Part shown: piece by piece, positions 870 through 25,460 of the stretch | Layout of the letters: each line of letters opens with the position of its first letter | Position numbering within the stretch: position 1 is the first letter of the stretch | NCBI GenBank assembly: GCA_038208905.1 | Contig: JBBQYG010000049.1 | Span: 1 to 25,460 of the forward strand | Direction: 5' to 3' | Source: Candidatus Sumerlaeia bacterium | Lineage (GTDB): Bacteria > Sumerlaeota > Sumerlaeia > SLMS01 | DNA: 25,460 bases | Program-made: the position numbers and the translations under genes | The notes under the pieces: generated by a model | Database searches by the model: none | What the model saw: the letters and a program-made list of their open reading frames with translations, nothing else | Told to the model about the DNA's origin: nothing

Positions 870-942
870 CGTAGTTTGGCGATTGCCGACTCCGGGCGCC
901 AATCAATTTTGCGCCCGGAGGTCGGTACCGCCAGTTTTGGTG

Positions 943-3377: not shown

Positions 3378-3466
3378 TGGGCGAGGGTTGGCGGGAATGG
3401 CTTGCCTCGGGATTCTTGCAGGTGAGTGGACTCCATACCGCCATCAAGATACCAACGGAGGTTCCC

Positions 3467-6203: not shown

Positions 6204-6206
6204 TTC

Positions 6207-6296
6207 TCAAGATCGGCCCACTGTTGGATCAAGATCGTCCAAGATTTCCGGCATTGGAGGGCGGAAAGTGCTGGAGCGTCTTTAGCCCGGTATGAT
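6207..6296 (+). promoter_or_regulatory. Putative AraC-type direct-repeat site and -10 box upstream of the first PhyH gene
   Basis: TCAAGATCG at 6207-6215 and 6229-6237 (22-nt period), partial CCAAGAT at 6239-6245, and TATGAT at 6291-6296 with no good -35. Confidence 0.45.
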
Positions 6297-7158: not shown

Positions 7159-7167
7159 GCGTTCGAC

Positions 7168-7196
7168 GCGGGGCGGCGCCTCTTGCGCCGTCCCGC
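7168..7196 (+). terminator. GC-rich stem-loop between the two PhyH genes (stabiliser or weak terminator)
   Basis: GCGGGGCGGCGC-CTCTT-GCGCCGTCCCGC: 12-bp stem with one G-U pair and no U-tract. Confidence 0.4.
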
Positions 7197-7255
7197 CCAT
7201 TGCCCTTGCCTGGATGGCCACAAACCAGTTACTCCCAAGCGAGAGAGGATTTCCA

Positions 7256-9924: not shown

Positions 9925-10026
9925 GGTTTGACGGCCCGCCGGTTAAGTGGTTTCTGACTCGGTATTTTGCAGGATATCGCAGTCCGGGACCGAAATAGGG
10001 GACTTGGGCAGCGGAATCGGGGGCAA

Positions 10027-10055
10027 TTGAATAATACTGACGTGTTTTTTATTCT
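10027..10055 (+). promoter_or_regulatory. sigma70-type promoter of the long + strand operon
   Basis: TTGAAT (10027-10032) - 17 nt - TATTCT (10050-10055) in a strongly AT-rich island, about 100 nt upstream of the dapA-like gene. Confidence 0.65.
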
Positions 10056-10062
10056 TTTTCAG

Positions 10063-10075
10063 TTGACCGGTCCAA
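10063..10075. promoter_or_regulatory. Palindromic operator candidate at the predicted transcription start
   Basis: TTGACCGGTCCAA with a perfect core GACCGGTC, starting 8 nt after the -10 box. Confidence 0.5.
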
Positions 10076-10159
10076 TATCTTCTGCTCCAACTCGTCGTAT
10101 CAGCGCCATCCGGTGGGTGCCTTACCCGGGGCTGCTGGACACTTGAAGGAGTCTTGATC

Positions 10160-11110
10160 ATGGCAATAAACTGGACCGGCATTTTTCCCGCAACGCTCTG
10201 CCCGTTCCATCCCGATTTCAGCATCGACGAGGAGGGTCTCGTTTCCTACCTGAGCTGGCTCGCCACCCACAAGCGGCTGAGCGGCCTGGTGACGAACGGG
10301 CATACGGGAGAGATCATGTCCCTGCGGCCCCGGGAGCGGGCCGATGTGACGCGCATCGCGGTGAAGACCGTTGGAGCCCAGATGCCCGTCGTTTCCGGCG
10401 TCTCCGCCGACGGCAGCCTGGAGGCCGTCGATCACGCCCTCGAAGCCAAGTCCGTTGGCGCCGCGGGCATCCTGCTCATGCCGCCCCATCACTGGCTTCG
10501 TTTCGGCCGCTCCAGCCAGACGGCGGTCGGCTTTGTCGAGGACGTTGCCGAGGGAGCGGACATCTCCATCGTCATCCATCAGTACCCCTCGTGGACCAAG
10601 GCGGGCTATACGCTGAACGAAATGCTGGAGATGGTGAAGATCCCCCAAGTGGTCTCCATCAAGCTGGGCACCCGCGACATGGCGCGTCAGTACCACGACT
10701 ATCGCGCGCTGAAGCGGGCCGCGCCCCACGTCTCGATCCTGACCTGCCATGACGAGTTCCTGATGGCCTCCTTGATCGAGGGAGCCGACGGCGCGCTGGT
10801 TGGATTCGCCGGCTATGCGCCCAGCCTGATCCTTGAGATGTTTGACAAGGTGCAGCAGAAGGACCTGGAGGGCGCCTACGAAGTCCGGCGCAGCCTTGAG
10901 GTGCTCGCCCAGGCGATTTACCAGTTTGGCGAGCCTTCAAGCGAAGCCCACCAGCGCATGAAGGTGGCGGCATGGCTGACGGGCAAGCTCTCCTCGCCCG
11001 TTGTGCGTCCGCCGCTGCGTCCCCTTCCCGAGGCGGCGATCAGTTCGCTGCGCGCGCGCCTGGACGAAGTAGGAGAGAAAGTGAGAAAGCAGGCCGGGGC
11101 GATCGTCTGA
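10160..11110 (+). CDS. DapA/DHDPS/NAL-superfamily (class I aldolase/dehydratase) protein with an atypical active site
   Basis: GIFPATLCPF...IDEEG, NGHTGE, PVVSGV, LLMPP, Schiff-base Lys in SIKLG, GADGALVG, VRPPLRPL. ATG 10160 follows AAGGAG. Confidence 0.9.
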   Translation: MAINWTGIFPATLCPFHPDFSIDEEGLVSYLSWLATHKRLSGLVTNGHTGEIMSLRPRERADVTRIAVKTVGAQMPVVSGVSADGSLEAVDHALEAKSVGAAGILLMPPHHWLRFGRSSQTAVGFVEDVAEGADISIVIHQYPSWTKAGYTLNEMLEMVKIPQVVSIKLGTRDMARQYHDYRALKRAAPHVSILTCHDEFLMASLIEGADGALVGFAGYAPSLILEMFDKVQQKDLEGAYEVRRSLEVLAQAIYQFGEPSSEAHQRMKVAAWLTGKLSSPVVRPPLRPLPEAAISSLRARLDEVGEKVRKQAGAIV

Positions 11111-11150
11111 CCGCCACCACCCCCCACCATCCCCGAGGAGTTACCCACAA

Positions 11151-11747
11151 ATGAGTGCGAAGCGCGGATTTACACTGATTGAACTGCTGATCGTCGTGGC
11201 CATTATCGCCATCCTGGCGGCGATCGCAGTCCCGAACTTCCTGGAGGCCCAGACGCGGTCCAAGATCGCCCGCGTCAAGGCCGACCACCGGAGCCTCGCG
11301 ACGGCCATGGAGGCCTATCGCGTGGACTACAACGACTACGTGCCCGCTTGGCAGTTGCTGGGGCGCCTTGGCAAGCCAGTCGTGTTCCTGAACGACAAGT
11401 TCGTGCGCTGGCGCCTCGTGGGGCTCACGACGCCGGTCGCCTATTTCACGTCGCTCCCCGAGACGCCTTTCCTTCCGAAAGGCTACCGCCACTCAAGCGG
11501 CGTGATTCCCCTGACGTTCAACGTCGGCAGCGAGTACGAGATGGGGCACTTCGACGGTTGGTACAACAACGCGGGACCCGTTCTTGCCGGCTCCAACCCG
11601 ACGGTAACTCGCTACCACTTCCGTGACGCTGGTCCGGATTCGGAGTTTACGAACGCCAACGCAGCGAACTCCCAGACTAACATGTTCCCCTATGATGCCA
11701 CCAACGGGACGATTTCCACCGGGGACATCTGGCGTTTTGGTCCGTAA
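11151..11747 (+). CDS. Type IV prepilin/pseudopilin-like protein (N-terminal cleavage/methylation motif)
   Basis: MSAKRG|FTLIELLIVVAIIAILAAIAVPNF: class III signal with G(-1), F(+1), E(+5), then an amphipathic helix, an LTTPVAY motif and C-terminal AGPD...YDATNGTISTGDIWR. RBS GAGGAG. Confidence 0.92.
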   Translation: MSAKRGFTLIELLIVVAIIAILAAIAVPNFLEAQTRSKIARVKADHRSLATAMEAYRVDYNDYVPAWQLLGRLGKPVVFLNDKFVRWRLVGLTTPVAYFTSLPETPFLPKGYRHSSGVIPLTFNVGSEYEMGHFDGWYNNAGPVLAGSNPTVTRYHFRDAGPDSEFTNANAANSQTNMFPYDATNGTISTGDIWRFGP

Positions 11748-11888
11748 GCTAATCGAACCGCTCCAAGACCCCGAAGGTCGCCGCAATCAGGACGATCCGG
11801 GGAACCAGCCACGAATCTCCAAACTACACGCCACGCGGTCCGCGCCACAACCCGCGTAACCCCCCGCCCACCCAAGGAGATGTGATCC

Positions 11889-13832
11889 ATGCTATCCCTT
11901 ATGAACAAAAACCGACTGAAGGTGTTGGCTCTTGCGGCGTTTCTTCCCCTCTGCGCGCAGGTTGAAGGGGCTGTTATTCTTCCCGGCAGCATTGTCAACG
12001 GCACCATTGACGCGGGTCAACCGGCGGCCAATGCAACCGACGTGGACTATCTGACAGCGATGCGAATCAACTCGACCGGGGCGACAACTGATCGTGTCAG
12101 TTTTGTCGTGGACCTGCAGGGCGAACAGAACGTCCACGGTGTCGGCATCTATGGTGATCCCACCTATCGGGCTTCCATTGGAATGCTCGCCGGCAACGTG
12201 AATGTGGAGGCGGGCGACTCCGCGAGCGGCCCGTGGACCCAGATCGGATCGATCAACGTGGGCAACACCCGCCCCACCGATCCCGATCCGACCATTGGCG
12301 GCGGCAATCCATTCACAGGCGGCAACGGGCGCCTAATCCCCTGCGACGGGGCTGCCGCTTCCTTCCTCCGTATCTCGGGCACCCAGGAATTCGACAACGT
12401 CATCGATGTCTATCACCTGCAGATCAATCCCCGCCTCATCATCCACCAGTTCAAGCCCGTCTATACGGGAACCAGTCTCTCTCCGTTCGACTTCGGCGGC
12501 GGTGTCGGCAATTCCCGGGCTGCGCCAGACTTGACGGATGGACTCCTGAACACGCGCGCCTTCATCGGAAACCAGTCCGATCTCGTGTTCGACCTTGGTA
12601 CCGCGCGTCCGCTGAAGGAGATGCGCATTCACGCCTCGGAATCCGACGATTTCGCGTTGATCCGGACTGGCACCATGCGGGTGTCGAGCACCGACAATCC
12701 CACGAACATGGACACAGTGGTGAACACGTTCAACACAGGTGGCAGCAAGGCCACGGCGGTCGTGCCGATGACGGGAAATCCCAGCAAGCGCTTCGTCCAA
12801 CTGACCGTCGGCACGAACCAGCAGGGGACCGCGGCCACTGGCACCCAGGCGACATTCCGCTTTTCCGAGGTAGACTACCGCGCCATCGAGGAGTCGCCGA
12901 TCAACACGGCCTCCGTGGCTTCCTTTGCCAACGGCACATCGACGACCCAAGCCGGCGTCTTCGATCTGGACTACAATGTCCGCGCAGAGTTTGGGCAAAC
13001 AACGGGCAATCTGGAGCTGACCGTGGCCCTCGGCACCTCGACGGAGGTTCGCTCGGTCGGCCTCTATGGCGACTGGGCCTACCGGACCACGATCAACGCC
13101 CCCAGCGGCGTCGTGACCGTGGAGGCGGGCAATAGCGCCAGCGGCCCGTGGACGGCGATCGGCAGCCGCGACTTTGGCAGCACCCGCCCCACCGATCCCG
13201 ACCCCACCATCGGCGGCGAAAACGTCTTCACCGGCGGAAACGGGCGCCGCATTCCCGTGACGCCGACCACCGCCAGCCACCTGCGCATCATCGGCGGCTA
13301 TGGATACGACAGCCCGATCCTCATCTACGAGGCGATCGTGAATCCCGATCACGTTCTCCACACAGTCAACCCCGTGGACCAGAGCCAGACACTGTGGGAT
13401 ATTGGCGGCGGCCCCCTGAACACCCGCGCCGGTGCCGAGACGGTGGACGGCAACCTGAACACACGCATCAACCCCCGCCTGCTCTACACGTTCACGCTCG
13501 ACGTGGCCCCGACCGCCGCGAAGATCAAGGAAATCCGCATCTTCCCGATGGACAACGACATCGTCCAGCTTCCCAAGACTGGCGTGGTGCGCACGTCATC
13601 GACGGATAGCCCGACCAACTTCGACACGGTGGAGAACAGCTTCGACGTCCCGATCACCGGCGGCGCCGTCGTCATCCCCGTGGCGAGCCAGCCCACCAAG
13701 CGCTACGTCCAGATCCAGTTCCTCAGCGGCCAAACCGTCGCGGTTCCTCGCGTCGGCGAGATCGAGGTTGTCACGATCCCGGCCGTTATCCCGAATGCTT
13801 CCAACGTGCCCAATTGGCAGATGTTCGAGTAA
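11889..13832 (+). CDS. Secreted non-catalytic-looking protein of two ~305-aa repeats (each probably two discoidin/F5-8C/CBM32-like beta-sandwiches) plus a C-terminal Trp tail
   Basis: Sec signal (KNRLKVLALAAFLPLCAQVEG-A). Internal duplication at a 915-nt offset. Discoidin-like motifs (TDG..NTR, FDLG, KRFVQL/KRYVQI, SEVD/GEIE). RBS AAGGAG. The fold assignment is inferred. Confidence 0.8.
   Translation: MLSLMNKNRLKVLALAAFLPLCAQVEGAVILPGSIVNGTIDAGQPAANATDVDYLTAMRINSTGATTDRVSFVVDLQGEQNVHGVGIYGDPTYRASIGMLAGNVNVEAGDSASGPWTQIGSINVGNTRPTDPDPTIGGGNPFTGGNGRLIPCDGAAASFLRISGTQEFDNVIDVYHLQINPRLIIHQFKPVYTGTSLSPFDFGGGVGNSRAAPDLTDGLLNTRAFIGNQSDLVFDLGTARPLKEMRIHASESDDFALIRTGTMRVSSTDNPTNMDTVVNTFNTGGSKATAVVPMTGNPSKRFVQLTVGTNQQGTAATGTQATFRFSEVDYRAIEESPINTASVASFANGTSTTQAGVFDLDYNVRAEFGQTTGNLELTVALGTSTEVRSVGLYGDWAYRTTINAPSGVVTVEAGNSASGPWTAIGSRDFGSTRPTDPDPTIGGENVFTGGNGRRIPVTPTTASHLRIIGGYGYDSPILIYEAIVNPDHVLHTVNPVDQSQTLWDIGGGPLNTRAGAETVDGNLNTRINPRLLYTFTLDVAPTAAKIKEIRIFPMDNDIVQLPKTGVVRTSSTDSPTNFDTVENSFDVPITGGAVVIPVASQPTKRYVQIQFLSGQTVAVPRVGEIEVVTIPAVIPNASNVPNWQMFE
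12266..13201 (+). repeat. Intragenic direct repeat marking the module duplication
   Basis: Identical 21-mer CACCCGCCCCACCGATCCCGA at 12266-12286 and 13181-13201, within longer similar stretches. Confidence 0.9.
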
Positions 13833-13846
13833 TGCCTGTTGCCTGA

Positions 13847-13890
13847 AAACGGAGAGCCTCCCACCCGGGGGGGCTCTCCGTTTCGCTTTC
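13847..13890 (+). terminator. Rho-independent terminator-like hairpin inside the operon
   Basis: AAACGGAGAGCCTCCC (13847-13862)/GGGGGGCTCTCCGTTT (13868-13883): 16-bp stem with one G-U pair and an interrupted U-tract TTTCGCTTTC. Confidence 0.75.
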
Positions 13891-13922
13891 AGATGGAGGA
13901 CTTTGGAAAAGGGGAAGGATTC

Positions 13923-15548
13923 TTGGAAACCCAAGTATATCTGCTATCGTGGCTGGACTGGCTGTCGGTTGTCGTCTATCTCGGCATTCTGGCGGCGATG
14001 GGGTATTATTTCTCCCGTCGCCAGAACGGCGCGGACGAATACTTCGTTGGCAAGCGCGACATCCCCGGCTGGGCCGTGGGGATTTCGATGTTTGCCACGC
14101 TGCTATCCAGCTTCACCTTCATCGCGTTTCCCGGCTTCGCCTATGATCGAAGCTGGGAAATTCTCATGCGTGAGTTCATGGCGCCGATTTGCGTCGCGAT
14201 CGCCGCGGTGACCGTCATTCCGATCTATCGCCAGGCCATCCGCATGAGCGCCTATGAGTATCTGGAGCGCCGCTTTGGCTATGCCGCGCGTGTATATGGC
14301 AACCTCGGCTTCATGTTTGGCCACTTTTTCAAGATTTCAGTCGTGATGTTCACCATGTCGGTGGCGCTGAACAGCATCACCGGGTGGGATATCACCACGA
14401 TTATCGTGATTCTGGGCGCGGTCACGGTTGTCTATACGTCGGTGGGTGGGATCAAGGGCGTGATCTGGACCGACGTGATTCAAGGAATCCTGATGCTGGG
14501 CACGGGCCTGATGACGGTGGCCTATCTAGTCTTCATCGCGTCGCCGTCTCCCGGAACCCTCTTTGCGGAGGCAGCGCAGGACGGCAAGTTTCGCCTGATC
14601 AATCCCGAGTTTTCGATGACCAAGGAGACCGTCTATGTCTTCATGTTCTTCGGCATGTTTCAGTTCCTGACCAAGTATGGAACCGACCAGACGATGGTGC
14701 AGCGCTACCTGCTGTCGCCGTCGCGAAAGGACACCGTGCGCGCGATGTTTATCAGCGTCGCCTGCTGCATGGTGGCCTGGATCACGTTCTCGCTGATCGG
14801 CTCGCTCCTTTATGGTTTCTATCAGATCAATGCCGACCGGTTGCCCGAGGGGATGAAGGGCGATAAGGTCTTTCCGTACTTCATCGCGCGCGAGCTGCCG
14901 ATCGGCGTGACGGGTCTTGTGCTCGCGGGACTCTTCTCCGCCACCATGTCCACGCTCTCCTCCGACCTCAACAGTGTCGGGGCCGTGGTGATCGGCGACT
15001 ACTATGACCGCTTTGCCAAGAACCCGACCGACAAGGGCCGTTTTCGGCTCTCGCTTGGAATCGTTGTTGGCGCGGGCGTTGTCTCCGTCGCCGTGGCGAT
15101 CCTGCTCGCCACCTACAAGGGCAACATCATGCAGATGACGATGGATGCGGCCACGATCATTGGAACCTTGATCTCTGGCGGCATCCTGGCGGCGTTTGTG
15201 CTCGGTTTCTTCTGCCGCCGCGCCAACGCGAAGGGGCTCTACACCGCGATCATCTCGGGATTTATCGTGGGGGGCTGGTGCCTGTGGACTGGCGCCAAGG
15301 GCGACCAGTTGCCGTCCTCGCTCTCCTTCCTTGAGTACCGCCTGCACATGTGGTGGCTCTGGGGATTCAGCAACATCTTCGTATTCGTCGTCGGCTATCT
15401 TGTCAGCATCGCTTTCGGCAAGGGGGAGCTGGTCGATGAACGCCTCACGGTGTACGGCTATCGCAATCAGTCCGCGGCGGATGAGCACGCGGGGGAGCAG
15501 AGGGCGCAGGACGGAACCCACGGCGACGCCGTCGAGAGGCGATCGTGA
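13923..15548 (+). CDS. Sodium:solute symporter (SSS/SLC5 family)
   Basis: EYFVGKR.IPGWAVGISMFATLLSS.TF...PG, SAYEYLERRFG, YT.VGGIKGVIWTDVIQ, DQTMVQRYL, GLFSATMSTLSSDLNS, and many TM segments. Start is TTG 13923 or ATG 13893; the track's 13839 start reads through the hairpin. Confidence 0.93.
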   Translation: METQVYLLSWLDWLSVVVYLGILAAMGYYFSRRQNGADEYFVGKRDIPGWAVGISMFATLLSSFTFIAFPGFAYDRSWEILMREFMAPICVAIAAVTVIPIYRQAIRMSAYEYLERRFGYAARVYGNLGFMFGHFFKISVVMFTMSVALNSITGWDITTIIVILGAVTVVYTSVGGIKGVIWTDVIQGILMLGTGLMTVAYLVFIASPSPGTLFAEAAQDGKFRLINPEFSMTKETVYVFMFFGMFQFLTKYGTDQTMVQRYLLSPSRKDTVRAMFISVACCMVAWITFSLIGSLLYGFYQINADRLPEGMKGDKVFPYFIARELPIGVTGLVLAGLFSATMSTLSSDLNSVGAVVIGDYYDRFAKNPTDKGRFRLSLGIVVGAGVVSVAVAILLATYKGNIMQMTMDAATIIGTLISGGILAAFVLGFFCRRANAKGLYTAIISGFIVGGWCLWTGAKGDQLPSSLSFLEYRLHMWWLWGFSNIFVFVVGYLVSIAFGKGELVDERLTVYGYRNQSAADEHAGEQRAQDGTHGDAVERRS

Positions 15549-17335
15549 AGAGCATCTACACCCTCCTTCTTGCTGGGTCGCTGGTTGTGGCCCAGGCAGC
15601 GGCGTCGCCAGGCGCCGAGACGGCAACGGAGTCCGTGTGGGACGACACCGCGCCCTACGCGCTTCCGCTCGACGTCGAGTGGGGCGCCGATGTCGAGCGG
15701 GATGGAATCCGCATGAGGCGGCTTGTCTATACAGGCTCGGTCTATCAGGGTACTCCCCAGCGCGTGAAGGCCATCTATGGCCAGCCCGCGGGGAAGGGCC
15801 CGTTTCCCGCCGTCCTCCAGATTCACGGCGGGGGGCAGACGGCGTATCCGGAGAACGTCGCCTACTTCGTCAAGCATGGGTATGCGTGCCTCGCCTTTGA
15901 CTGGACCGGGCCGCGCGACGAGAGACCGGTGGAGGAGGTGACGCAGTGGAGCGTCGATTTCTCGCTCGTTGGGTACAGCGATTCCGACCCGGACCCAAGG
16001 CGCTGCATCATCTATCACGCGGTCACCGCCGCGCGTCGCGGTATCGACGTTCTGGTTATGCAGGACGGCGTGGATGCGTCGCGCATCGGCGTGGAGGGAG
16101 TATCCTGGGGCGGATTCCTCACGTGGCTGGTCAACGCGATCGATAGCCGCGTCAAGGTTGCCGTTCCCGTGTATGGCGTCGGTGGGGTTCGATCCCAATG
16201 GAACAGCATGGGCATTGGCCTCCGCCAGCAGCCCCAGCACTGGATCGACACGTGGACGCGGAACTACGATCCGCTGTCCTTCGCCAGCGAGATGCACGGC
16301 CCGGTGATGTTTGTGGACGGCTCCAACGATTTCTTTGCTCCATTGGATACCGCCGAGAAGATGCTGGGGGCGCTGAAGGTTCCCCATCGCAGGGCCTACA
16401 GCCCCAACAGGATGCACTCCCTGGCGCCGGAGCACGCCCGCGCGGCAATCGCATGGATCGACGCACATCTAAAGGGCGACGGTACGTTTCCCACCGAGCC
16501 GGGTATCGAGTTCTCCGCCGCCGATGGCGCCCTGACGGCGACAGTCCGGGCCGACGCGAGCAAGCCGATCACGTCGGTGCATGTTGACTACGCCCGCGGG
16601 TTCAGCCTTCCGCTGCTTCGCGGATGGGTCCCCGCGGACGCCACCGGCGCGGGCGATACGTGGACGGCGAAATTGACCACGGTGGACGCAACGAGGCCGC
16701 TCTATGCGATGGCCCAGGTGGCCTATGCCGACGGCTTCACCATGACGAGCCCTGTCCGCGAAATTATTCCCGCGGTCGAGTTTCCCGGATTAATCGGGAC
16801 GCTGACACCCTCCCCTGTGATCAGCGACTGGGGAGCGGATCCCCGCGAATGGTACATTAGGACGAGCGTTGATCTCTTCGCCGTCGAGAACGTGAAGGCG
16901 GTGCTGAGAAGCGCCGAGGTCGACGGGAAGAAGGCGATTCTCTACGACTCCCCCGAGAACTACTCCTCGCTGGAGGTCTCGACCCGAATGACCGCCGATC
17001 CCACCCGTGAAAACGGCGGCTCGCGATGCCTTGAGATATGGACCCACGATGTTAACTCGCTGAAGGTCAGGATGAATCACTTCCTGAGGAAGCCCGGCGA
17101 ATTGCAGTACGAAGCCTCGGCGACGCCGGGCAAGGGGTGGCAAAAGACCGTCCTCTGTCCCGCGCAGTTTCAGCGCTTCTCGGAGGACCGCGACGGAGTC
17201 GATCCGTCTCTCCCGGGTCCCACGAAGTGGAATGAACTCCATCAGATCACGCTTTTCGGAGAGCGGGAGGCTGACGGGCAGGTGGCGATTGGGTTGGTGC
17301 GATGGGTTGAAGTTGGCAGCACGAACAGCAACTGA
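15545..17335 (+). CDS. Exported alpha/beta-hydrolase (putative carbohydrate esterase) with C-terminal beta-rich domains
   Basis: Signal peptide; PAVLQIHGGG (oxyanion), GVSWGG (nucleophile Ser), GSNDFF (Asp), NRMH (His). GTG start overlaps the SSS stop (GTGA). Confidence 0.85.
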   Translation: MKSIYTLLLAGSLVVAQAAASPGAETATESVWDDTAPYALPLDVEWGADVERDGIRMRRLVYTGSVYQGTPQRVKAIYGQPAGKGPFPAVLQIHGGGQTAYPENVAYFVKHGYACLAFDWTGPRDERPVEEVTQWSVDFSLVGYSDSDPDPRRCIIYHAVTAARRGIDVLVMQDGVDASRIGVEGVSWGGFLTWLVNAIDSRVKVAVPVYGVGGVRSQWNSMGIGLRQQPQHWIDTWTRNYDPLSFASEMHGPVMFVDGSNDFFAPLDTAEKMLGALKVPHRRAYSPNRMHSLAPEHARAAIAWIDAHLKGDGTFPTEPGIEFSAADGALTATVRADASKPITSVHVDYARGFSLPLLRGWVPADATGAGDTWTAKLTTVDATRPLYAMAQVAYADGFTMTSPVREIIPAVEFPGLIGTLTPSPVISDWGADPREWYIRTSVDLFAVENVKAVLRSAEVDGKKAILYDSPENYSSLEVSTRMTADPTRENGGSRCLEIWTHDVNSLKVRMNHFLRKPGELQYEASATPGKGWQKTVLCPAQFQRFSEDRDGVDPSLPGPTKWNELHQITLFGEREADGQVAIGLVRWVEVGSTNSN

Positions 17336-17344
17336 GGAGAAGGC

Positions 17345-18349: not shown

Positions 18350-18374
18350 CGCAACTCAAGGAAAAGGAACTTCG

Positions 18375-19289
18375 ATGAAAGTATTGCTGGCAGGCGCCGC
18401 AGGTTATGTTGGCCGCTATTTCACATGGAAGGCTGAGGACCGCTACGACTTGCGGCTCTCCGACGTTGCGCCTCCGAACCCCGACCGCCTGCCTTGGGTC
18501 TATGGCGCCCTGGATGTGCAGCGCACGCCGGAATTCACGCCCAAGCCCTCCGCGCGTCACGACTTCAGCGTGGGCGACTTGTGCGACTATGACTACTGCC
18601 TAAAGATCACAAAGGACGTGGATGTTGTCCTGAACCTCTCCGGCCACGTCCGCCACGAGGAGCCGGTCGATTGCTTCCGCGTCAATGCGGTCTCCACGTT
18701 CAACTTGTTGGAGGCCGCCGTGCAGAACGGCGTGAAGACCTTCCTGACGGCGTCGAGCATCAACGCCTCCGGCTGGTTCTACTGCCGCTACACCAATCGC
18801 AAGCGCGATTGGCCATATTTCCCCGTGGACGAGAAGTACCCCACGGATCACGAGGACCCCTACAGCCTGGCGAAGTACTGCAACGAGCTGAACTGCCTCG
18901 CGTGGACCAACCGCACGGGCGCCACGACGGGTGCGTTTCGATTCTCCGGCGTCTTTCCGCCCGAGTGGACAAACATCTTCGCCTCGCGCGTGAAGCCGAC
19001 GGAGGTCTGGCCCGAGGAGTTGCACAGCTACGTCGATCTGCGCGATGTGGTGGATGGCCTGATCAAGGCGGTGGACGCAAAGGATCGCCTGCCGAAGTTC
19101 GGTGTTTACCAGATGGCGGCGCCAGACACCCAGATGCCGGAGCCCACGATGGAGCTGCTCGAGCGGTTCCACCCCGAATGGGTCAGCCGCGTGCGCGAGC
19201 CATTGCCGGGGCGCACGTCGCTGCTCTCCCACAAGGCTGCGCGCGATGCGTTCGGCTTCAACCCCGTCCATCACTGGAAGGAAATCTAG
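18375..19289 (+). CDS. NAD(P)-dependent epimerase/dehydratase-family (extended SDR) oxidoreductase
   Basis: KVLLAGAAGYVG, N...TFNLLEAA, ASSINA, PYSLAK (YxxxK), YVDLRD, KAARDAFGF.P. Confidence 0.88.
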   Translation: MKVLLAGAAGYVGRYFTWKAEDRYDLRLSDVAPPNPDRLPWVYGALDVQRTPEFTPKPSARHDFSVGDLCDYDYCLKITKDVDVVLNLSGHVRHEEPVDCFRVNAVSTFNLLEAAVQNGVKTFLTASSINASGWFYCRYTNRKRDWPYFPVDEKYPTDHEDPYSLAKYCNELNCLAWTNRTGATTGAFRFSGVFPPEWTNIFASRVKPTEVWPEELHSYVDLRDVVDGLIKAVDAKDRLPKFGVYQMAAPDTQMPEPTMELLERFHPEWVSRVREPLPGRTSLLSHKAARDAFGFNPVHHWKEI

Positions 19290-19294
19290 TCATC

Positions 19295-22200
19295 ATGCGG
19301 CTCCTGATTGGTACTCTGCTTCTCTGCGCCGGAGTCGTCCACGCGGCTCCCGTCGATGTGACCACGCTCGGCGTTATTCCCAACGACGGCAACGACGACT
19401 CCTCCGCCCTGACCGCCGCGTTGCAGAACAATCAGGAGCTGTTCCTTCCCGCCGGTGTCTATACGTTCAACAGCACGGTCTATATTCCTTCCCAGCGCCG
19501 CATCGCCGGCGCCGGGAAGGATGTCACGACGATCCAGCTCGGCGCCGACACGGTTGCCTTCCGTATCGAGGGAAGCAACAACGTCAAGGTCTCGGGGATG
19601 ACCATCAACCGACCCTTCGACAACTCCGTCGAGGAGGCGATCTTCGTCTATTCGGGCGCGCTACATGTCCATCTCGACAATATGCGCGTCACGAATCAGC
19701 GCAGCCGCGCCGCAGCCTTTGTTTTTAACACCACCACCAACTGTGCCGTCACCAACAGCGAGTTCATCGACGTCCAACGCCGCATCGTGGAGGATGGCTC
19801 CGAGCAGGTCTATGGCTCCGGCATCACCTTCAACGGATGCGCGGGTGTCCACGTCGAGAACAACACGGTAACCGAGACGCGCAACCTCGCGCTGACCAAC
19901 TCCACCAAGTACAATTGGTATCAGGCCGGCGCCATTCAGGTCAGCGGATGCCGCCAGGCCGTCGTCCGCAACAACCGCATCACGCTAACCGGCAACGGAA
20001 TCGACGTGGGCGGAACCCTTCACGCCATTGTCGAATACAACCAGGTGGATAATTGCCATGAGACGGGCATCAAGCTCGTCAACGGCTCCAGCAACCAAAT
20101 CGTCCGCAACAACTACGTCACCCGTTGCGGACTGGTGGGGATCTGGATGTCACCCGGCAGCGAGAACCTGGCAATCCGCGACTGCATCGTGGAAGACAAC
20201 GTCCTTGGCCAAATCGGCCAGGGGACCGGCGGAAACGACTACTGGGATGGCTGGTTCAACAGCACGGTGCCAGCCGGAATTCATATGGACTCAGCATCAA
20301 CCACGGCGCAGCGCTCACAGAACCTGACTGTCCGCAACAATTCATTCTACGACAACGCCAGCATGCAGAACGCGGTGATCATTCGCCCGGGTGGCACCTC
20401 TGCACAGAACGTGACGCAGACCAACAATCAGGTCCTGGCCGGAGCTCTGCCATCGCCCGGCCTACCGCCGAGCTTTCCCGATCAATTCGAGCTACCCGCA
20501 CTCAAGCCGCGGGTGGCCGCGTATGTGCCGGGATCGCTGCAGAATGCCACCGTGAGCCCATCCGATGGGATCGCCAAGGCCTTCGACCAAATTGCCACTA
20601 CGCGCGCACTGTTCAATGATGCCGGGCATTCGCCCACGGACCGGTGGCGTTTCGATGTGGATATCCAGTCGGAGCTGCTGGTGGAGTCACTTGCGCTCTA
20701 TGGCGAACACACCTACCGCACCGACGAGGCCTCGCCCGGCGGCGTCGTGGATATTGCGGCGTCCAATAGTCCAACCGGGCCGTTCATCAGAATCGGCACA
20801 CGCAACTTTGGCGCTGACAGAGCCACGAATCCGTTCACCGGCGGCAAGGGCAAGCGCATCCACGTGACGCCGACGACGGCACGCTACCTCCGCATATCGG
20901 GCGGTCAGTGGTCCAACACTTTTGACAACAACGTGATCATCAGCGAGGTGATCGTGAATCCCCGCATCGTGCTCGACAACTACTCGCCGATTCACAACCC
21001 CGGATATCCGCTTCCCAACTCGGCATCGGTACCCCAGCAGTCGACTTGGAATGTCGGCGGTGGGTTCGAGAATGATCGCGTCGGACTCGACTTGGTTGAT
21101 GGCAAGCTCATCACGCGGCTGATCCCGACCAAGCGCATGACATTCCTTCTCGACATGGCCCCGCGGCTTGGAACCGTGGCCGACGTCGATGCGTTCATCT
21201 TTCATCGCGCTGCCGTTGGGTCGGAAAGCTTCCTGCCAAAGTCCGGAACGATTCGCGCTTCCTCCACGAATGATCCCGCCAACATGGACCTCGTGGTGGC
21301 CACCTTCGACGAGCCAGCCGCCCATACGCGCGTGGTTGTGCCAGTGGACCCCGCCGCAAAGGGGCGTTATTTCCAGATCGAACTGAACACTAGCCAGGCC
21401 GGCAGCTCGGCGGATGACGCCCACCGCATTGGCGAGGTTGATTTCTTCGGGAGGATCGTGGAAGACACAATCACGCCGGTGCCAACGCCGACGCCAACGC
21501 CCTCCCCGACGGCGACTCCTTTTCCCAGTCCCACCGGCACCCCCAACATCGTGGACGTGACCTCCTGCGGCGCGATTCCCAACGATGGGCTGGATGACTC
21601 GGCTGCCTTCGCCCAGTGCCTCCTGACGGCGACCACGCTCAATGTTCCACCGGGCGTCTATCACTTCGCCCAGACGGTGTTTATCCCCTCAAACCGCGTG
21701 ATCCGCGGGGCGGGAATGGAGGAAACTTCGATTGTTCTCCTCCGCGACACCGGGGCGTTCCGCATCGACAACAAGCATAATGTCACAATCTCGGACCTGA
21801 CCATCGACCGGCCCTTCGACAACTCCCTTGAGGAGATGGTTTTTGCGTACAACGGGTCCACCTACGTGACCTTCGAACGCATTCGCTCGCTCAACAATCG
21901 CTCACGCGCTCCGGCGCTGCGCTTCATCGGCACCGCCAACGGCACCGTGCGCGATTGCATCGTGATCGACACCCAGCGCCAGATTTTCGAGGACGGGAAT
22001 CTGTACACCTACGGATCGGGAATCACCTTCGAGCACTCCGATCAGGTGCTCGTCGAGTGCAACCGCGTCATCGAAACACGCGACCTTTCGATCGAGAATT
22101 CGCCTCTCCAGGGAACCAACACCTACTATCAGGCGGGGGCCATTCAGACTTCGAGCTGCACGAATGTAACAATCCGCGGGAACTATGTATATCTCTCCGG

Positions 22201-22720
22201 CAACGGCATCGATGCGGGAGGAACATTCCCCGCTTTGATCGAAAACAACTGGATCGACAACATTCAGGCCACGGGAATCAAGCTCGTCAACGGCTCCGCC
22301 CATCAGATTGTCAGGAACAACTACCTGACCCGTTGCGGCATCAATGCGATCTGGCTGAGCCCCGGCAGCACCGATCTCCCCACGCACAACTGCCTGGTGG
22401 AAAACAACACCATCGCCGAAACAGGTCAGGGAGTTGGCTTTGCCTACTGGCGTGGCTTCATGGGCAACACCGCGCCCGCAGCCATTCACCTCGGCGAAGC
22501 CAACAGCTTCGCGGGCCGCTGCTATGACAATATCATCAGAAACAACATCACCTATGACGATCCAGAGATGGTGGACGATGTCATCGTGAGGCCCAGCGAC
22601 TTCGCCGCGATCAATACAACCATCGAGGACAATCAACTGCTGACCGGCGAGCCGCCCGCGCCCCCGGCGAACTGCTCGGGCCAGTCAACCGCCGGAACCG
22701 AGCTATGGAGAATCGAGTGA
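19295..22720 (+). CDS. 1141-aa secreted multidomain protein: beta-helix, discoidin-like module, Pro/Thr linker, duplicated beta-helix, Trp tail (putative polysaccharide lyase/hydrolase)
   Basis: Signal peptide MRLLIGTLLLCAGVVHA at ATG 19295, 5 nt after the upstream stop. Pectate_lyase_3/GH28-like cap (DVT..G.IPNDG.DDS.A...LPAGVY) occurs twice. Asn-ladder repeats and a TPVPTPTPTPSPTATP linker are present. The track's 18671 start overlaps the SDR gene and is rejected. Confidence 0.85.
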   Translation: MRLLIGTLLLCAGVVHAAPVDVTTLGVIPNDGNDDSSALTAALQNNQELFLPAGVYTFNSTVYIPSQRRIAGAGKDVTTIQLGADTVAFRIEGSNNVKVSGMTINRPFDNSVEEAIFVYSGALHVHLDNMRVTNQRSRAAAFVFNTTTNCAVTNSEFIDVQRRIVEDGSEQVYGSGITFNGCAGVHVENNTVTETRNLALTNSTKYNWYQAGAIQVSGCRQAVVRNNRITLTGNGIDVGGTLHAIVEYNQVDNCHETGIKLVNGSSNQIVRNNYVTRCGLVGIWMSPGSENLAIRDCIVEDNVLGQIGQGTGGNDYWDGWFNSTVPAGIHMDSASTTAQRSQNLTVRNNSFYDNASMQNAVIIRPGGTSAQNVTQTNNQVLAGALPSPGLPPSFPDQFELPALKPRVAAYVPGSLQNATVSPSDGIAKAFDQIATTRALFNDAGHSPTDRWRFDVDIQSELLVESLALYGEHTYRTDEASPGGVVDIAASNSPTGPFIRIGTRNFGADRATNPFTGGKGKRIHVTPTTARYLRISGGQWSNTFDNNVIISEVIVNPRIVLDNYSPIHNPGYPLPNSASVPQQSTWNVGGGFENDRVGLDLVDGKLITRLIPTKRMTFLLDMAPRLGTVADVDAFIFHRAAVGSESFLPKSGTIRASSTNDPANMDLVVATFDEPAAHTRVVVPVDPAAKGRYFQIELNTSQAGSSADDAHRIGEVDFFGRIVEDTITPVPTPTPTPSPTATPFPSPTGTPNIVDVTSCGAIPNDGLDDSAAFAQCLLTATTLNVPPGVYHFAQTVFIPSNRVIRGAGMEETSIVLLRDTGAFRIDNKHNVTISDLTIDRPFDNSLEEMVFAYNGSTYVTFERIRSLNNRSRAPALRFIGTANGTVRDCIVIDTQRQIFEDGNLYTYGSGITFEHSDQVLVECNRVIETRDLSIENSPLQGTNTYYQAGAIQTSSCTNVTIRGNYVYLSGNGIDAGGTFPALIENNWIDNIQATGIKLVNGSAHQIVRNNYLTRCGINAIWLSPGSTDLPTHNCLVENNTIAETGQGVGFAYWRGFMGNTAPAAIHLGEANSFAGRCYDNIIRNNITYDDPEMVDDVIVRPSDFAAINTTIEDNQLLTGEPPAPPANCSGQSTAGTELWRIE
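21473..21543 (+). repeat. Pro/Thr low-complexity linker
   Basis: Encodes TPVPTPTPTPSPTATPFPSPTGTP between domains. Confidence 0.85.
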
Positions 22721-24852
22721 AAATACGCGCACTGCTGCTGGTCTCGCTGATCGCCGCCGCGACGGCAAGCCCCGCCAGCACCGAGTGGCCCACGCCGCTC
22801 GATCTCGGTGCCGTTGGCGATGGCACCGCCGACGATACCACGCTCGTCCAACAGGCGCTGGATGCAGGAACTGTCGTTCACCTTGCCGGTGCGACATATC
22901 GCATCACTTCGCCGCTAAGCCTGGCGACGGGCCGCACTCTCCTCGGGCCTGGATCTCTCATTGTCGATTTCGACTCCGGAACCGCAACGGATGCAAATGC
23001 AGCAGTCCACATCGTTGGGAACGACGTGCATTTGGGGAACGTGACCATCAACAAGCAGTTCATCGATGGTTCGCTCGCCTCTGGTGTTCGAGCCAGCGGT
23101 GTATCGAACCTGCGGCTCGATTCCGTCACAATTCAGGGATACAGCGCCCGCCCGGGCATTGTTATGGTGGACTGCCGCAACTTTCAGATTGGCGGCTGCA
23201 CGATCGGCGGGTTCACGCTCGGCCGCGCTGTCGAGATTGTCACAGAGCCGATGGCGGGAATCTATCTGATCGATACCACCGATGGCCTGATTGTAAACAA
23301 TGTGATTCGCGGCTTTGAGGTCGGTCCAGACGCACGGGGACAGGGGTACCTTTCCTATGGCATCTATGCGCGCAAGGCGGCCCGCCTCTGCATCCTACGC
23401 AATCAGATATCCATCGCGGGCGAGGGCGTCCATTTCGTGGATGCGCGAGACAGCGCCATCTCGGGCAACCGGATCGGGGACATCTGGTCCTATGGCGTCA
23501 GCCTTGTGCGAAGCTCCTTCGTCACCGTTGGCAACAATCACATCGACAATGCATATCAGGGGATCTCGCTCAGCGGCGACGAACAGGTCGTCGATCCCGG
23601 ATGCATCGATCCCGCCGTGGGATCCAAGGCTCCGCTGGCCGGCGTCGTCGGGAGCGTCATCGGCGGCAATGAGGACCCCGAGGGCATCGGAGAGACGCTC
23701 GCGCGCATCGGCGACGGCAACTACTCCACTCGGAGCACCATTAGCCAGGCCGGTCCCGTGGCGTTCTCCTTCGTGATCGACCTCTTGCAGGAAACGCGGT
23801 TCAGCGATCTGACGCTTGTCTCCGAACGAAACTATCGCCCGGGCGGCCAGTTTCCCGGAGGCGCTGTCTCGCTGGCGGTGTCGTCCTCGCCCACCGGACC
23901 GTTTGTAGATGGCGGCGGTGCAATCCTCGAATGTTCACGCCCGCCCGGCACGGAGATGACTGCCACAAACTCTGGTGCCTGCGCGACACAGACCGAGGCG
24001 CGCCGCATCGTCATGGCGCAGCCAGTCACCACACGCTATGTGCGCGTCTCCGCAACGTTCTGCCTGGACAACATCGTCCTCATCTCAGAGGCGTATGCCA
24101 ACCAGGGACCCATCGTCCGGCGGGTGCGCCCCATCGGCGACGCCTACCAGAATTTTCCACGCATTCCCGCGATGATGACGGATGGAAATGCTTCGACATA
24201 CTACAATCCCAACGTGACCGCCGGTTCCATCGATGTGGATGTGGCACCCTATCCCGTGACGATGGAGCGCATTCGTATGGTTGGACGTGTCGGTGATCTC
24301 GGCGGCCTTCCCCGATCCGGCGCTGTCTATACAACGGCTTCGGATGATCCCGATGCGCTCGACGTCCTTCTAACGAACTTCAATTTGGAGCCGGTGGGTG
24401 GCGAACTTGTGATCGAACTCCCTCCCGATGCCAGGGGCCGCTATGTGCGCATCGAATGGGATTCGCTGCAGGACCCCGCGGACACGCGCACTCAGATCGC
24501 GGAGATCGCACTGGACTACAGCGAGGCCTGCATCCCTCAGGGGTCGGAATTCCTGCTTTCCTCAAACGGCAACTCGATCAATGGAAACGTGATCCTGAAC
24601 GCGGGCGCGCGAGGGGTGTTTGATCAGTCCGGGACGAGTCGCGTCGCCGGCACCGGGCCCGTTGGGATCGATCTCGGCAACGAGGCCAGCTATAACGTGG
24701 TCTCGGATCACCTCATCGCCGACCGGCAGTTTATTCCCACGATGGTCGATGGCATTCGCACCGGCGACTCTGGCGTCGCCAATGTGGTCACCGACAACAT
24801 TACGACCTATGACGTTCAGAAGGAAACCCTCCAGCTTTGGGTTCTACACTAG
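22717..24852 (+). CDS. Secreted right-handed beta-helix protein with an inserted discoidin-like module and Trp tail
   Basis: GTG 22717 overlaps the upstream TGA, with GGAG at 22707-22710. Signal peptide; TPLDLGAVGDGTADDT..VQQALD cap; beta-helix repeats before ~23580 and after ~24560. Confidence 0.82.
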   Translation: MKIRALLLVSLIAAATASPASTEWPTPLDLGAVGDGTADDTTLVQQALDAGTVVHLAGATYRITSPLSLATGRTLLGPGSLIVDFDSGTATDANAAVHIVGNDVHLGNVTINKQFIDGSLASGVRASGVSNLRLDSVTIQGYSARPGIVMVDCRNFQIGGCTIGGFTLGRAVEIVTEPMAGIYLIDTTDGLIVNNVIRGFEVGPDARGQGYLSYGIYARKAARLCILRNQISIAGEGVHFVDARDSAISGNRIGDIWSYGVSLVRSSFVTVGNNHIDNAYQGISLSGDEQVVDPGCIDPAVGSKAPLAGVVGSVIGGNEDPEGIGETLARIGDGNYSTRSTISQAGPVAFSFVIDLLQETRFSDLTLVSERNYRPGGQFPGGAVSLAVSSSPTGPFVDGGGAILECSRPPGTEMTATNSGACATQTEARRIVMAQPVTTRYVRVSATFCLDNIVLISEAYANQGPIVRRVRPIGDAYQNFPRIPAMMTDGNASTYYNPNVTAGSIDVDVAPYPVTMERIRMVGRVGDLGGLPRSGAVYTTASDDPDALDVLLTNFNLEPVGGELVIELPPDARGRYVRIEWDSLQDPADTRTQIAEIALDYSEACIPQGSEFLLSSNGNSINGNVILNAGARGVFDQSGTSRVAGTGPVGIDLGNEASYNVVSDHLIADRQFIPTMVDGIRTGDSGVANVVTDNITTYDVQKETLQLWVLH

Positions 24853-24863
24853 GAGACTCGACA

Positions 24864-25460
24864 ATGAGAGCACCGATCACGCTGTCCCTGATGCTGGCAT
24901 GTGGCATCTGCCACGCCGCGACAACGCCCAACGAAATCACCACGCCCTATGACTTCGGAGCCGTCGGCAACGGCACGGCGGACGATAGCACTGCGCTCCA
25001 GAATGCGCTGAGCTCCGGCAGGATCGTCACGCTTCCCGGTGGCAGCTTCCGCATCACTCGGCGTATGAACATCCCCGCCAACGGCGGCCTGGTGGGCGCG
25101 GGAACCATCCTCCACGATTTCGACACCAGCCCAGCTCCAGGGCTTCCCTCGGCCAATGACTATGCCTTCTTCACCAATGGCGCCAACGTGAGACTCGAAG
25201 GATTCAAGCTGAAGAAGACCTTCATCGATGGTTCCTATGCCTGTGGCATCGTTGCCGACCACGCCAACAACATCACCATCAAGGACGTGGAGATTTCAGG
25301 GTATAGCGCCCGCTATGGAATCCACATCATCGAGAGCGAGAATATCCAGGTCACCGGCTGCTATATACACAGCTTCATGATGAACACGACCGCTGACATG
25401 ATCTCCGATTCCCCCGCGGGGTTGCGCGTGACCCGCTGCGTGCGCGGAATCGTCTCTAAC
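24864..25460 (+). CDS. Secreted right-handed beta-helix protein (5' part, runs off the window), paralog of the preceding gene
   Basis: Not in the ORF track because it has no stop. AGGAG RBS, then ATG 24864 and 199 open codons: MRAPITLSLMLACGICHA-ATTPNEITTPYDFGAVGNGTADDSTALQNAL...KKTFIDGSYACGI...ISGYSARYGI. These match KQFIDGSLASGV and IQGYSARPGI of 22717-24852. Confidence 0.88.
   Translation, partial: MRAPITLSLMLACGICHAATTPNEITTPYDFGAVGNGTADDSTALQNALSSGRIVTLPGGSFRITRRMNIPANGGLVGAGTILHDFDTSPAPGLPSANDYAFFTNGANVRLEGFKLKKTFIDGSYACGIVADHANNITIKDVEISGYSARYGIHIIESENIQVTGCYIHSFMMNTTADMISDSPAGLRVTRCVRGIVSN

Follow-up and report, generated by a model that had tools for sequence, protein, structure and literature searches.

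The stretch of DNA analysed here, which we call the window, is the whole of contig C49 (JBBQYG010000049.1; 25,460 bp) in a Candidatus Sumerlaeota metagenome-assembled genome (G000; 4.24 Mb in 301 contigs, 64.5% G+C, 93.9% complete). From position 10154 to the contig end, where our reading of it stops, it holds a SusC/SusD-independent glycan-utilisation operon, whose second and third genes encode a type IV prepilin, P0001 (11151–11747), and a secreted repeat protein, P0002 (11889–13832). Our analyses support the existence of a recurrent module in which a GspG-like pilin is encoded together with an exoprotein that carries a short C-terminal tail of the form W-x-[LM]-[FY]-(x)-COOH; the window holds one conserved instance of it, set inside a glycan operon. 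We tentatively read this combination of pseudopilin and tagged exoprotein as serving export or surface display, which we consider possible rather than probable. The kinds of element involved, type IV filament subunits and sugar loci outside the SusC/SusD type, are already known, and the locus is a variant of these. The literature that we searched describes neither the pilin family nor the tail, a motif that is not searchable as text, and in the Sumerlaeota genome paper (PMC10866078) the words pilin, pilus, pili, type IV and type II secretion do not occur. Of the by-products of the analysis, this candidate sorting tail, so far undescribed, seems to us the most interesting.

P0001 is a protein of 198 residues encoded on the plus strand. 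Its N-terminus, MSAKRG|FTLIELL, is a class III signal with a G|F cleavage and methylation site and a glutamate at mature position 5, recognized both by the N_methyl model PF07963 (E = 3.3e-9; 36.4 bits against a cut-off of 21.2) and by TIGR02532 (37.9 bits against 16.3). Residues F7, T8, L9, E11 and L12 are invariant among 120 relatives, across which the polymerisation helix and Glu5 as a whole are invariant or nearly so, and the protein carries the family motifs TTPVAY, GPD and YDATNGTISTGDI. An AF2 model built from the 120-sequence alignment reached a pLDDT of 90.6. With an exhaustive structure aligner, the top matches of this model were EpsG of Vibrio cholerae (4lw9; Z 7.5, root-mean-square deviation 2.1, 91 of 119 residues) and PulG of Klebsiella oxytoca (5wda; Z 7.5), both ranking above the type IV pilins, at Z scores under 8, a range often reached by models that lack a clear match. 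Solved pilins match P0001 by sequence in its N-terminal helix only. The GspG equivalog model TIGR01710 likewise covers residues 5–66 only and stays below its cut-off (48.6 versus 88.85 bits); PF08334 (T2SSG) was not reported for P0001 at E <= 0.01, and Pfam T2SSG is present on some of its relatives. Neither PF07596 (DUF1559) at E <= 0.01 nor an H-X9-DG model (NCBIfam) at E <= 0.001 matched the protein. Because EpsG and PulG lead the fold ranking, the GspG equivalog cut-off is failed and the DUF1559 and H-X9-DG models find no match, we call P0001 GspG-like: it is neither GspG proper nor a member of DUF1559, the type of family to which a preliminary description of this DNA had likened it and which we reject on these grounds.

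With the GspG of type II secretion systems (T2SS), as represented by EpsG and PulG, P0001 thus shares the class III signal, the glutamate and the helix matched by TIGR01710, and the two solved pseudopilins head the structural matches of its model. It differs in a head that is about 60 residues longer and contains a hypervariable insert, in its number (33 family copies in G000 as opposed to one GspG per system), and in its surroundings, since it is not encoded with GspE, GspF, GspD or the minor pseudopilins H–K, none of which lies in the window. The conserved YD.TNGT.S.GD loop could be the counterpart of the calcium site in the C-terminal loop of GspG. With the DUF1559 (PF07596)/H-X9-DG proteins of Planctomycetes, the P0001 family has in common that it is a large orphan set of paralogues with a prepilin-type N-terminus; it belongs to a different phylum, carries the conserved C-terminal motif YDPTNGT.S.GD, and is not recognized by the respective models. 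Planctopirus limnophila has 68 orphan DUF1559 paralogues (PMC10632474), and our search of the literature on DUF1559 found nothing on function.

The prepilin had been described as lone, which holds within the window and fails at the level of the genome. A six-frame motif scan of G000 yielded 45 prepilin-like open reading frames (ORFs), 33 of them with the same N-terminus as P0001. A TTP.AY-type motif occurs in 32 and the YD.TNGT.S.G motif in 31 of these 33 paralogues, so that the pattern LTTP...YD.TNGT.S.GDI, by which the preliminary description proposed to collect such prepilins, is common to the family; the stretch between the two motifs is hypervariable. Every one of the 75 Sumerlaeota genomes contains the family, the number of matches per genome ranging from 12 to at least 42, and it comprises at least 7998 matches at E <= 0.001 among the best 8000 candidates scored. 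Within it, the orthologue group of P0001 is sharply bounded (17 proteins at 58–72% identity, the remaining relatives being at about 50% or less), and the paralogues in its own genome are only 36–45% identical to it over the full length; judged from these sequence comparisons, the P0001 lineage is therefore old and distinct. Some family pilins occur in tandem: arrays of three to four genes are seen in the metagenome loci L040 (about 4472–6243) and L059 (about 9405–12460), that of L040 adjoining an AraC regulator and a GH38-like gene, and a locus of the complete genome G069 (L246) has three in a row.

P0002 (647 aa, plus strand, with a signal peptide) is built from a pair of discoidin/CBM32-like beta-sandwich modules that occurs twice in tandem, giving four modules in all, and the internal duplication is visible in its sequence. 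The F5_F8_type_C model PF00754 matches it with E = 2.6e-7 (31.3 bits against a cut-off of 28.2), and neither Pfam nor NCBIfam found a catalytic domain. Its AF2 model (pLDDT 84.1) is composed of all-beta modules. Foldseek matched it 234 times in the PDB at E <= 0.001, to structures of the discoidin, F-lectin and CBM32 kinds; neuropilin b1b2, fucolectin and ZmpB CBM32-1/2 rank first, and Akkermansia sialidase/fucosidase entries are also among them. One of its domain pairs has a counterpart in each of the two complete beta-helix proteins that the operon encodes (45% and 28% identity). From its modelled fold, P0002 is best read as the dedicated multivalent glycan-binding protein of the locus. It is a rare protein, which occurs in 2 of 75 genomes of the phylum and whose family numbers 14 proteins in a database of 5.8 billion sequences.

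The neighbourhood of the two proteins is conserved in G050, a genome of a different genus in the same family, in which the operon is split over several contigs. One of these (C262; L030) carries genes for AraC, PhyH, SASA-like esterase, aldo-keto reductase and creatininase proteins, followed by a pilin copy (65% identity) and the aldolase (81%), at which the contig ends. Another (C356; L162) starts inside a second pilin copy (78% over the last 45 residues) and continues with the orthologues of P0002 (61%), of the sodium:solute symporter (SSS; 76–78%) and of the esterase (59%). A third contains the end of the orthologue of the 1141-aa beta-helix protein, the orthologue of the 715-aa one (54%) and a complete gene of 459 codons for the third. 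G050 hence has two P0001-lineage pilins flanking the aldolase, where the window has one, after the aldolase, and the order pilin, P0002, SSS is retained in the second genus. In G050 the operon stops after the 459-aa beta-helix gene, facing convergent genes that encode a GFO-family protein and two additional beta-helix proteins. Neither a TonB/SusD pair nor a pilus cluster lies 3' of it there, whereas in G000 the contig ends; the downstream receptor or secretion cluster whose presence was to speak against the preliminary description has thus not turned up in G050. Beyond G050, two more pilin orthologues agree with P0002 relatives in source, number of contigs and length of contig (4465 bp in one case, 102,901 bp and two P0002 relatives in the other), which is circumstantial evidence; for one orthologue, located on a contig of 279 kb, no partner is listed.

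We noticed the C-terminal tail because P0002 and an unrelated 305-aa protein 3' of the pilin paralogue on contig C44 both end in NWQMFE, encoded in the window at 13812–13829 on the plus strand. Genes of G000 were called with a home-made codon-bias caller (3534 genes), the tag was defined as W.[ML][FY] with no more than one residue after it, and its expectation was taken from the same pattern at random internal positions. By this definition the tag ends 39 of the 3534 proteins, against 2.8 expected, and it is preceded by a weaker preference for P..S[SA][VA].[DN]. Among the 38 carriers other than P0002, 17 have a Pfam match and 21 have none. The families represented are typical of exoproteins and include GH18 (a chitinase), GHL10 with Golvesin_C, Glucodextran_C, Endonuclease I, Exo_endo_phos with LTD, reprolysin, trypsin-like, lactonase, TSP3/FG-GAP, F5/8C and NHL. 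A cytoplasmic ATP-grasp protein among the 17 is a probable false positive. The tails end 0–1 residue past the aromatic position and have neither a hydrophobic helix nor a basic cluster. Within the P0002 family the strict tag is present in 6 of 14 proteins, W-x-aliphatic-(F/Y/L/M) within the last six residues in 12 of 14, and F takes the place of W in 2 of 14.

The tail also differs from the sorting signals that we compared with it. NCBIfam gave no sorting-domain match over cut-off for P0002 and the 25 of 38 other tagged proteins scanned, P0002 having no match at all; faint pieces of choice-of-anchor Q and of myxosortase- or rhombosortase-dependent M36 models appeared on some tagged proteins. 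Unlike PEP-CTERM, GlyGly-CTERM, MYXO-CTERM, LPXTG and the C-terminal domain of type IX secretion, the W-x-[LM]-[FY] tail has no transmembrane helix, no basic cluster and, in the proteins scanned, no match to a sorting model. A likeness exists to T2SS cargo with GlyGly-CTERM and rhombosortase, for which VesB is an example, in that exoproteins combine a Sec signal with a short C-terminal tag; the PDZ domain of EpsC is reportedly needed for secretion of VesB by the T2SS (PMC12369372). Contig C12 of G000 carries three tagged genes along with PilT-like ATPases and a secretin; otherwise, the C44 partner is the only one near such genes, at 7 kb from a partial ATPase match.

Tagged exoproteins adjoin pilins far above chance. 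Of the 39 tagged proteins, 6 are immediate neighbours of a pilin paralogue (permutation p = 0.0002), and the result is the same when the null is limited to proteins having signal-peptide-like N-termini (p = 0.00015). Four of these pairs (C44, C48, C49 and C248) are arranged as pilin followed by tagged protein, with gaps of 42–141 bp, whereas the order is reversed on C34 and divergent on C2. BLAST detected no mutual homology among the six pilin-adjacent tagged proteins. The association recurs in 79 metagenome loci: of their 1944 complete ORFs of at least 100 aa, 31% lie within 600 bp of a pilin ORF, as do 6 of 6 tagged ones (P ~0.001). For some paralogue lineages, the partner is moreover fixed in evolution. 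The 305-aa tagged protein of the C44 lineage is kept in 6 of 6 testable loci from other genera, 5 of which show the tail, a seventh locus being truncated, and the alginate lyase neighbour of the C119 lineage is kept in the one locus available (1/1). In other lineages, treated below, the partners are not fixed.

The machinery required to assemble a pilin of this kind is present in G000 and, as the preliminary description had supposed, is encoded elsewhere. The genome has 17 matches to the T2SSE family, five of them full-length GspE/PilB-like proteins at 385–466 bits, T2SSF matches on four contigs (C47, C33, C53 and C66), four secretins and one prepilin peptidase (Peptidase_A24, on C123), and contig C49 has no match to T2SSE, T2SSF, secretin or prepilin peptidase. 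We scanned the products of 21 window ORFs with Pfam and found no match to an ATPase of a T2SS or type IV pilus, a secretin, a TonB receptor, SusD or an ABC binding protein among them, in agreement with the preliminary description. PF00593, the barrel of TonB-dependent receptors, has no match in G000 at 93.9% completeness, which is why we take the lack of SusC/SusD as a trait of the organism and not of the locus; there is none in the window or downstream in G050, PF00593 is missing genome-wide, and for SusD itself the search covered these loci. The richness of type IV filament machinery in G000, with 17 T2SSE matches and four secretins alongside no TonB receptor barrel, is unusual.

In our reading of the operon, three Sec-exported beta-helix enzymes and the esterase would attack an acetylated, probably acidic or deoxy-sugar-containing polymer. 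The SSS symporter would take up the product, and two dehydrogenases and a probably KDG-type class I aldolase would catabolise it. For the pilin, the fold class of P0001, the presence of the machinery, the lack of another obvious outer-membrane route for enzymes of 70–120 kDa and the adjacency statistics lead us to suggest the following mechanism. P0001 would be processed by the single prepilin peptidase of the genome and assembled by a type II secretion or type IV pilus machine encoded elsewhere, and it may serve the outer-membrane passage or surface retention of its tagged neighbour, perhaps also of the operon enzymes; the glycan would then be captured and cut outside a cell that has no TonB-dependent receptors. 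Our data establish the gene content, the predicted fold class, the size of the family, the conserved synteny and the statistical tie of pilin paralogues to tagged exoproteins; from these we infer filament assembly of P0001, physical contact with its partner and the use of the tail for sorting or docking. Of the idea that the pilin is a locus-specific subunit served in trans, the parts that stand are the machinery in trans and the tie to the neighbouring gene; the general link to carbohydrate loci, examined below, is weak. As for the proposed pairing with the adjacent 647-aa protein, it is favoured by the adjacency conserved in G050 and by the wider link between pilins and tags, while co-folding gave no answer: P0002 (residues 28–647, 14-row alignment) with the pilin head (residues 30–198, 18-row alignment) scored 0.00 in both runs, made with no controls, and we count this neither way.

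Several observations weigh against export or display by a pseudopilin. The fold support for the pilin is modest, as its Z score lies in a range common among models without a clear match, and Foldseek returned nothing for the P0001 model at E <= 0.001. By sequence, its N-terminal helix is closer to type IVa pilins (Geobacter, Myxococcus) than to PulG, so that P0001 may belong to a pilus as well as to a pseudopilus. No contig that carries one of the 33 paralogues also encodes a full-length ATPase, platform protein or secretin, the partial ATPase match on C44 being the nearest case, a point that the fragmentation of the genome into 301 contigs limits. The pilins also sit in operons less often than the average gene: a same-strand downstream gene follows within 150 bp for 12 of 32 pilins, against a background of 52%, and a close same-strand upstream gene exists for 9 of 31, against 51%. 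With respect to the tag, 27 of 33 paralogues have no adjacent tagged protein and 33 of 39 tagged proteins no adjacent pilin; most of each set being unpaired, the pairing must mostly act in trans or concern a subset. Replication in two complete genomes was weak in G066 (an adjacent tagged ORF at 2 of 18 pilin loci, with roughly 0.4 expected), and G069 gave 0 of 2. A crude signal-peptide heuristic flagged just 20 of the 39 tagged proteins, which also depend on gene calls from the home-made caller. The beta-helix proteins of 715 aa (22705–24852) and 1141 aa (19295–22720) end in ...LWVLH and ...LWRIE, near-variants that fail the strict tag. Finally, partners are lost in several lineages. The DUF6305 protein and gamma-glutamyltranspeptidase of the C7 lineage are both kept in 1 of 6 loci; the transpeptidase is adjacent in rearranged form in one more, and two others have an adjacent tagged ORF instead. 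In the C57 lineage the downstream gene is kept in 0 of 2 loci and a divergent amylase in 1 of 2. The C26 lineage, with a small PDZ-domain protein 5' and a 1170-aa protein without Pfam family 3' (G000:C26:9218–14309), keeps its neighbours in 0 of 5. Paralogue lineages with fixed partners thus stand beside others without.

The last of these losses also bears on the alternative that survives best, namely that P0001 is one of many interchangeable subunits of a pilus that serves general purposes such as adhesion, twitching, DNA uptake or surface variation; its position would be accidental, it would have no role specific to the glycan or to a partner, and the operon would work just as well without it. 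We think this rather unlikely, although much of what we know of the family as a whole speaks for it. We defined a carbohydrate locus, before the control scan, by the presence within three genes of a glycoside hydrolase, polysaccharide lyase, carbohydrate esterase or carbohydrate-binding module (CBM), SBP_bac_1/8, SSF, LacI, ROK, a GHMP-galactokinase or GFO, and scanned the neighbours of the paralogues with Pfam. Such genes were found at 10 of 30 pilin loci in G000, in one case by virtue of a GlgB glycogen gene, and at 5 of 40 random loci (seeded draw) when counted strictly or 7 of 40 with borderline matches. By Fisher's test this gives an odds ratio of 3.5 (p = 0.044) for the strict count and of 2.4 (p = 0.16) for the lenient one. 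Among the metagenome loci, 3 of the 15 with at least 3 kb on both sides (out of 79) lie beside such genes. In the complete genomes, where LacI and SBP_bac_1 genes served as markers (8 + 1 in G066, 1 + 2 in G069), a pilin lies within 5 kb of 1 of 8 SBP_bac_1 genes in G066 and within 15 kb of none of the 3 markers in G069, both counts having very low power. Over the whole family, enrichment near sugar genes is mild at most. The enrichment of prepilins near carbohydrate-active enzymes and sugar transporters predicted in the preliminary description is therefore marginal in the strict comparison and not significant in the lenient one; as a general rule it was stated too strongly, and two thirds of the paralogues (20 of 30 loci) lie beside unrelated genes such as those for ATP synthase, LytB, IleRS, DnaJ and RuvA. 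The opposite outcome, paralogues without any tie to carbohydrate loci, comes close to describing the family as a whole and does not describe P0001.

That the pilins are often monocistronic and that no partner family recurs among their neighbours fits a passenger as well. An all-against-all BLAST of 171 pilin neighbours revealed no common partner family and only generic kinases, ABC ATPases, LacI, SBP and aldo-keto reductase proteins, and in the 79 metagenome loci, searched by tblastn with the window proteins, no partner recurred. Scanning metagenomes with the alignment of orthologues gave paralogue-level relatives (<= 47% identity) and no orthologues. What argues against a mere passenger is the record of particular lineages: that of P0001 is old and distinct and remains next to P0002-family and SSS genes from one genus to another, with 18 proteins it is about as rare as the P0002 family with 14, and the C44 lineage has kept its partner in all 6 testable loci; the excess of tagged neighbours points the same way. 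Should the pairing turn out not to be functional, the window would hold an ordinary sugar operon outside the SusC/SusD type that happens to include a member of the family.

Three observations on the neighbours of paralogues are worth recording in their own right. In the metagenome locus L049, a family pilin lies between two sulfatase genes, near an SSF transporter fused to an N-acetylneuraminate-epimerase-like Kelch domain, an HpcH aldolase and a BNR protein, which makes it a second case of a pilin with an SSS transporter and an aldolase in a glycan locus. Mutually homologous genes for Ser/Thr protein kinases are found within three genes of four paralogues (C118, C119, C114 and C154), and Beta-lactamase2-family (PF13354) genes within five genes of three (C44, C85 and C95), in both cases with no comparison to chance.

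According to a second alternative, the variable head of the pilin itself binds the polymer and the pilus fishes for glycan, P0002 being an independent soluble lectin. The middle of the head is indeed hypervariable among paralogues between fixed flanking motifs and conserved within the orthologue group, as would be expected of a site for a specific ligand, and G000 has no TonB receptor. There is also a precedent in the Planctomycetes, bacteria without SusC/SusD in which filaments are implicated in polysaccharide capture: pili-like fibres of Planctopirus and Gemmata bound gold-labelled dextran, and the available part of that study does not identify the fibre subunits (PMC5394234). Those fibres were seen, whereas the Sumerlaeota system is known here from its genes alone. 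Against a glycan-binding pilus stand the head of P0001, which shows no lectin-like fold or known CBM and whose best matches are plain pseudopilins, the location of most paralogues outside sugar loci, and the presence of lectin modules already on P0002 and the operon enzymes; we consider it unlikely. Our search of the literature on pseudopilins and polysaccharide utilisation turned up only work on Bacteroides polysaccharide utilisation loci, and a search on GspG paralogues in Planctomycetes and Verrucomicrobia found nothing relevant.

Least probable, to the point of being doubtful, is that P0001 is no filament subunit at all and that its class III signal, once cleaved, only anchors a small periplasmic protein in the inner membrane, where it would hand oligosaccharides or the lectin to the SSS transporter in the manner of the Sulfolobus bindosome: paralogues do lie directly beside transporter genes (SSS in the window, ABC permease/SBP on C57, C34 and C44, the SSF fusion in L049), and the sugar-binding proteins of Sulfolobus that carry class III signals reportedly need a pilus-type assembly system (PMC3047682), but the predicted fold of the head is nearest to GspG-type pilins and not to solute-binding proteins, and the near-invariance of Glu5 and the polymerisation helix across the 120 relatives favours filament assembly. 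The bindosome, with its Bas assembly system, resembles the Sumerlaeota locus in that type IV-pilin-type signals and an assembly machine are used for sugar acquisition; it is archaeal, and its proteins with pilin signals are ABC solute-binding proteins, while P0001 has a small GspG-like head and the binding modules reside on the separate, Sec-exported P0002. Moreover, SSS transporters are not known to require binding proteins.

Returning to export or display by pseudopilin and tagged exoprotein, a more specific version would hold that W-x-[LM]-[FY]-COOH is a linear sorting or docking signal read by a T2SS-like pathway, in which orphan GspG-like pseudopilins act as cargo-dedicated subunits that dock or display tagged proteins on a short pseudopilus or pilus, here the four-module lectin that would capture the glycan of the operon. 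We judge it improbable in this full form; if true, it would be the first linear targeting signal for a T2SS-type machine, in a field in which the cargo signal is generally viewed as structural and not linear (PMC7949064), and a filament-based functional counterpart of the surface glycan capture by SusD or surface glycan-binding proteins. The locus therefore touches on two questions, the long-standing one of how the T2SS recognizes its cargo and the largely obscure one of how bacteria outside the Bacteroidota capture and import polysaccharides. Because each genome of this uncultured phylum has dozens of orphan GspG-like pilins, about 39 unrelated exoproteins share a tail and the pairing of the two is non-random and partly conserved, it offers a testable handle on both questions. 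If this pairing is functional, it would tie the diversification of pseudopilins to the handling of cargo and would explain the prepilin-like expansions in several environmental phyla.

As an operon, the locus is comparable to the SusC/SusD polysaccharide utilisation loci of the Bacteroidota in that it brings together glycanases and an esterase with a transporter, regulators and a glycan-binding protein that is not catalytic, with P0002 in the part of the surface glycan-binding protein and its modules shared by the operon enzymes. It differs from them in having no TonB-dependent transporter or SusD, neither in the window nor downstream in G050, and in importing through an SSS symporter. The gene content given in the preliminary description is present as reported, as ORFs and by Pfam and NCBIfam, and so is the tight coupling: the ten plus-strand genes are separated by gaps of -16 to +141 bp. 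A promoter is presumed to lie in the 229-bp gap (9925–10153, plus strand) that separates the operon from a divergent creatininase-family gene; a single promoter, as had been claimed, finds no backing in a sigma-70 consensus scan of 9800–14000, which gave no site on the plus strand and one on the minus strand, against 0.9 expected.

The first gene encodes a cytoplasmic class I aldolase of the DHDPS/DapA family (10154–11110, plus strand; PF00701, E = 2.4e-31), which scores under the cut-offs of the dapA, NanA and KdgD equivalogs of NCBIfam and has as its nearest solved relative YagE, a 2-keto-3-deoxy-galactonate aldolase (E = 1.2e-22). It is probably a 2-keto-3-deoxy-sugar-acid aldolase, with scores that do not separate the KDG type from the NanA type or from DapA. 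P0001 and P0002 are followed, all on the plus strand, by the SSS symporter (13839 or 13893, as alternative starts, to 15548; PF00474, E = 1.9e-40; TIGR00813, 228 bits against a cut-off of 184), presumed to import the released sugar; an exported alpha/beta-hydrolase esterase of the AXE1/S9 type with a signal peptide (15545–17335; PF05448, E = 2.3e-11); a cytoplasmic Zn-dependent dehydrogenase of the MDR family (Zn-ADH; 17345–18349; ADH_zinc_N, E = 5.9e-10); and an NAD-dependent epimerase/dehydratase-family (SDR) enzyme (18375–19289; PF01370, E = 2e-17). The three beta-helix proteins, each with a signal peptide, complete the operon as far as the contig shows it: the 1141-aa protein has two beta-helix regions and an internal discoidin-like pair (19295–22720; Beta_helix, E = 4.6e-29; Pect-lyase_RHGA_epim, E = 1.7e-12), the 715-aa protein a beta helix and a discoidin-like module (22705–24852; Beta_helix, E = 4.9e-13; F5_F8_type_C, E = 5.6e-5), and the third is cut by the contig end (24864–25460; Pect-lyase_RHGA_epim, E = 1e-10). 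None of them has a PDB sequence match at E <= 0.01.

Upstream of the operon, Pfam identifies a DeoR regulator (55–906, minus strand), a class II aldolase-SDR fusion resembling rhamnulose-1-phosphate aldolase (943–3183, minus), a SASA esterase (3377–5308, plus), an AraC regulator (5292–6203, minus), two PhyH-family dioxygenases (6328–7158 and 7214–8164, plus), an aldo-keto reductase (8270–9226, minus) and the creatininase-family protein (9223–9924, minus). In view of the SASA esterase, the DHDPS family of the aldolase, the SSS transporter and a faint N-terminal match to endosialidase, we considered a substrate of the sialic-acid type, which we leave open. The two PhyH dioxygenases, at 6328–8164, are odd companions for a sugar locus.

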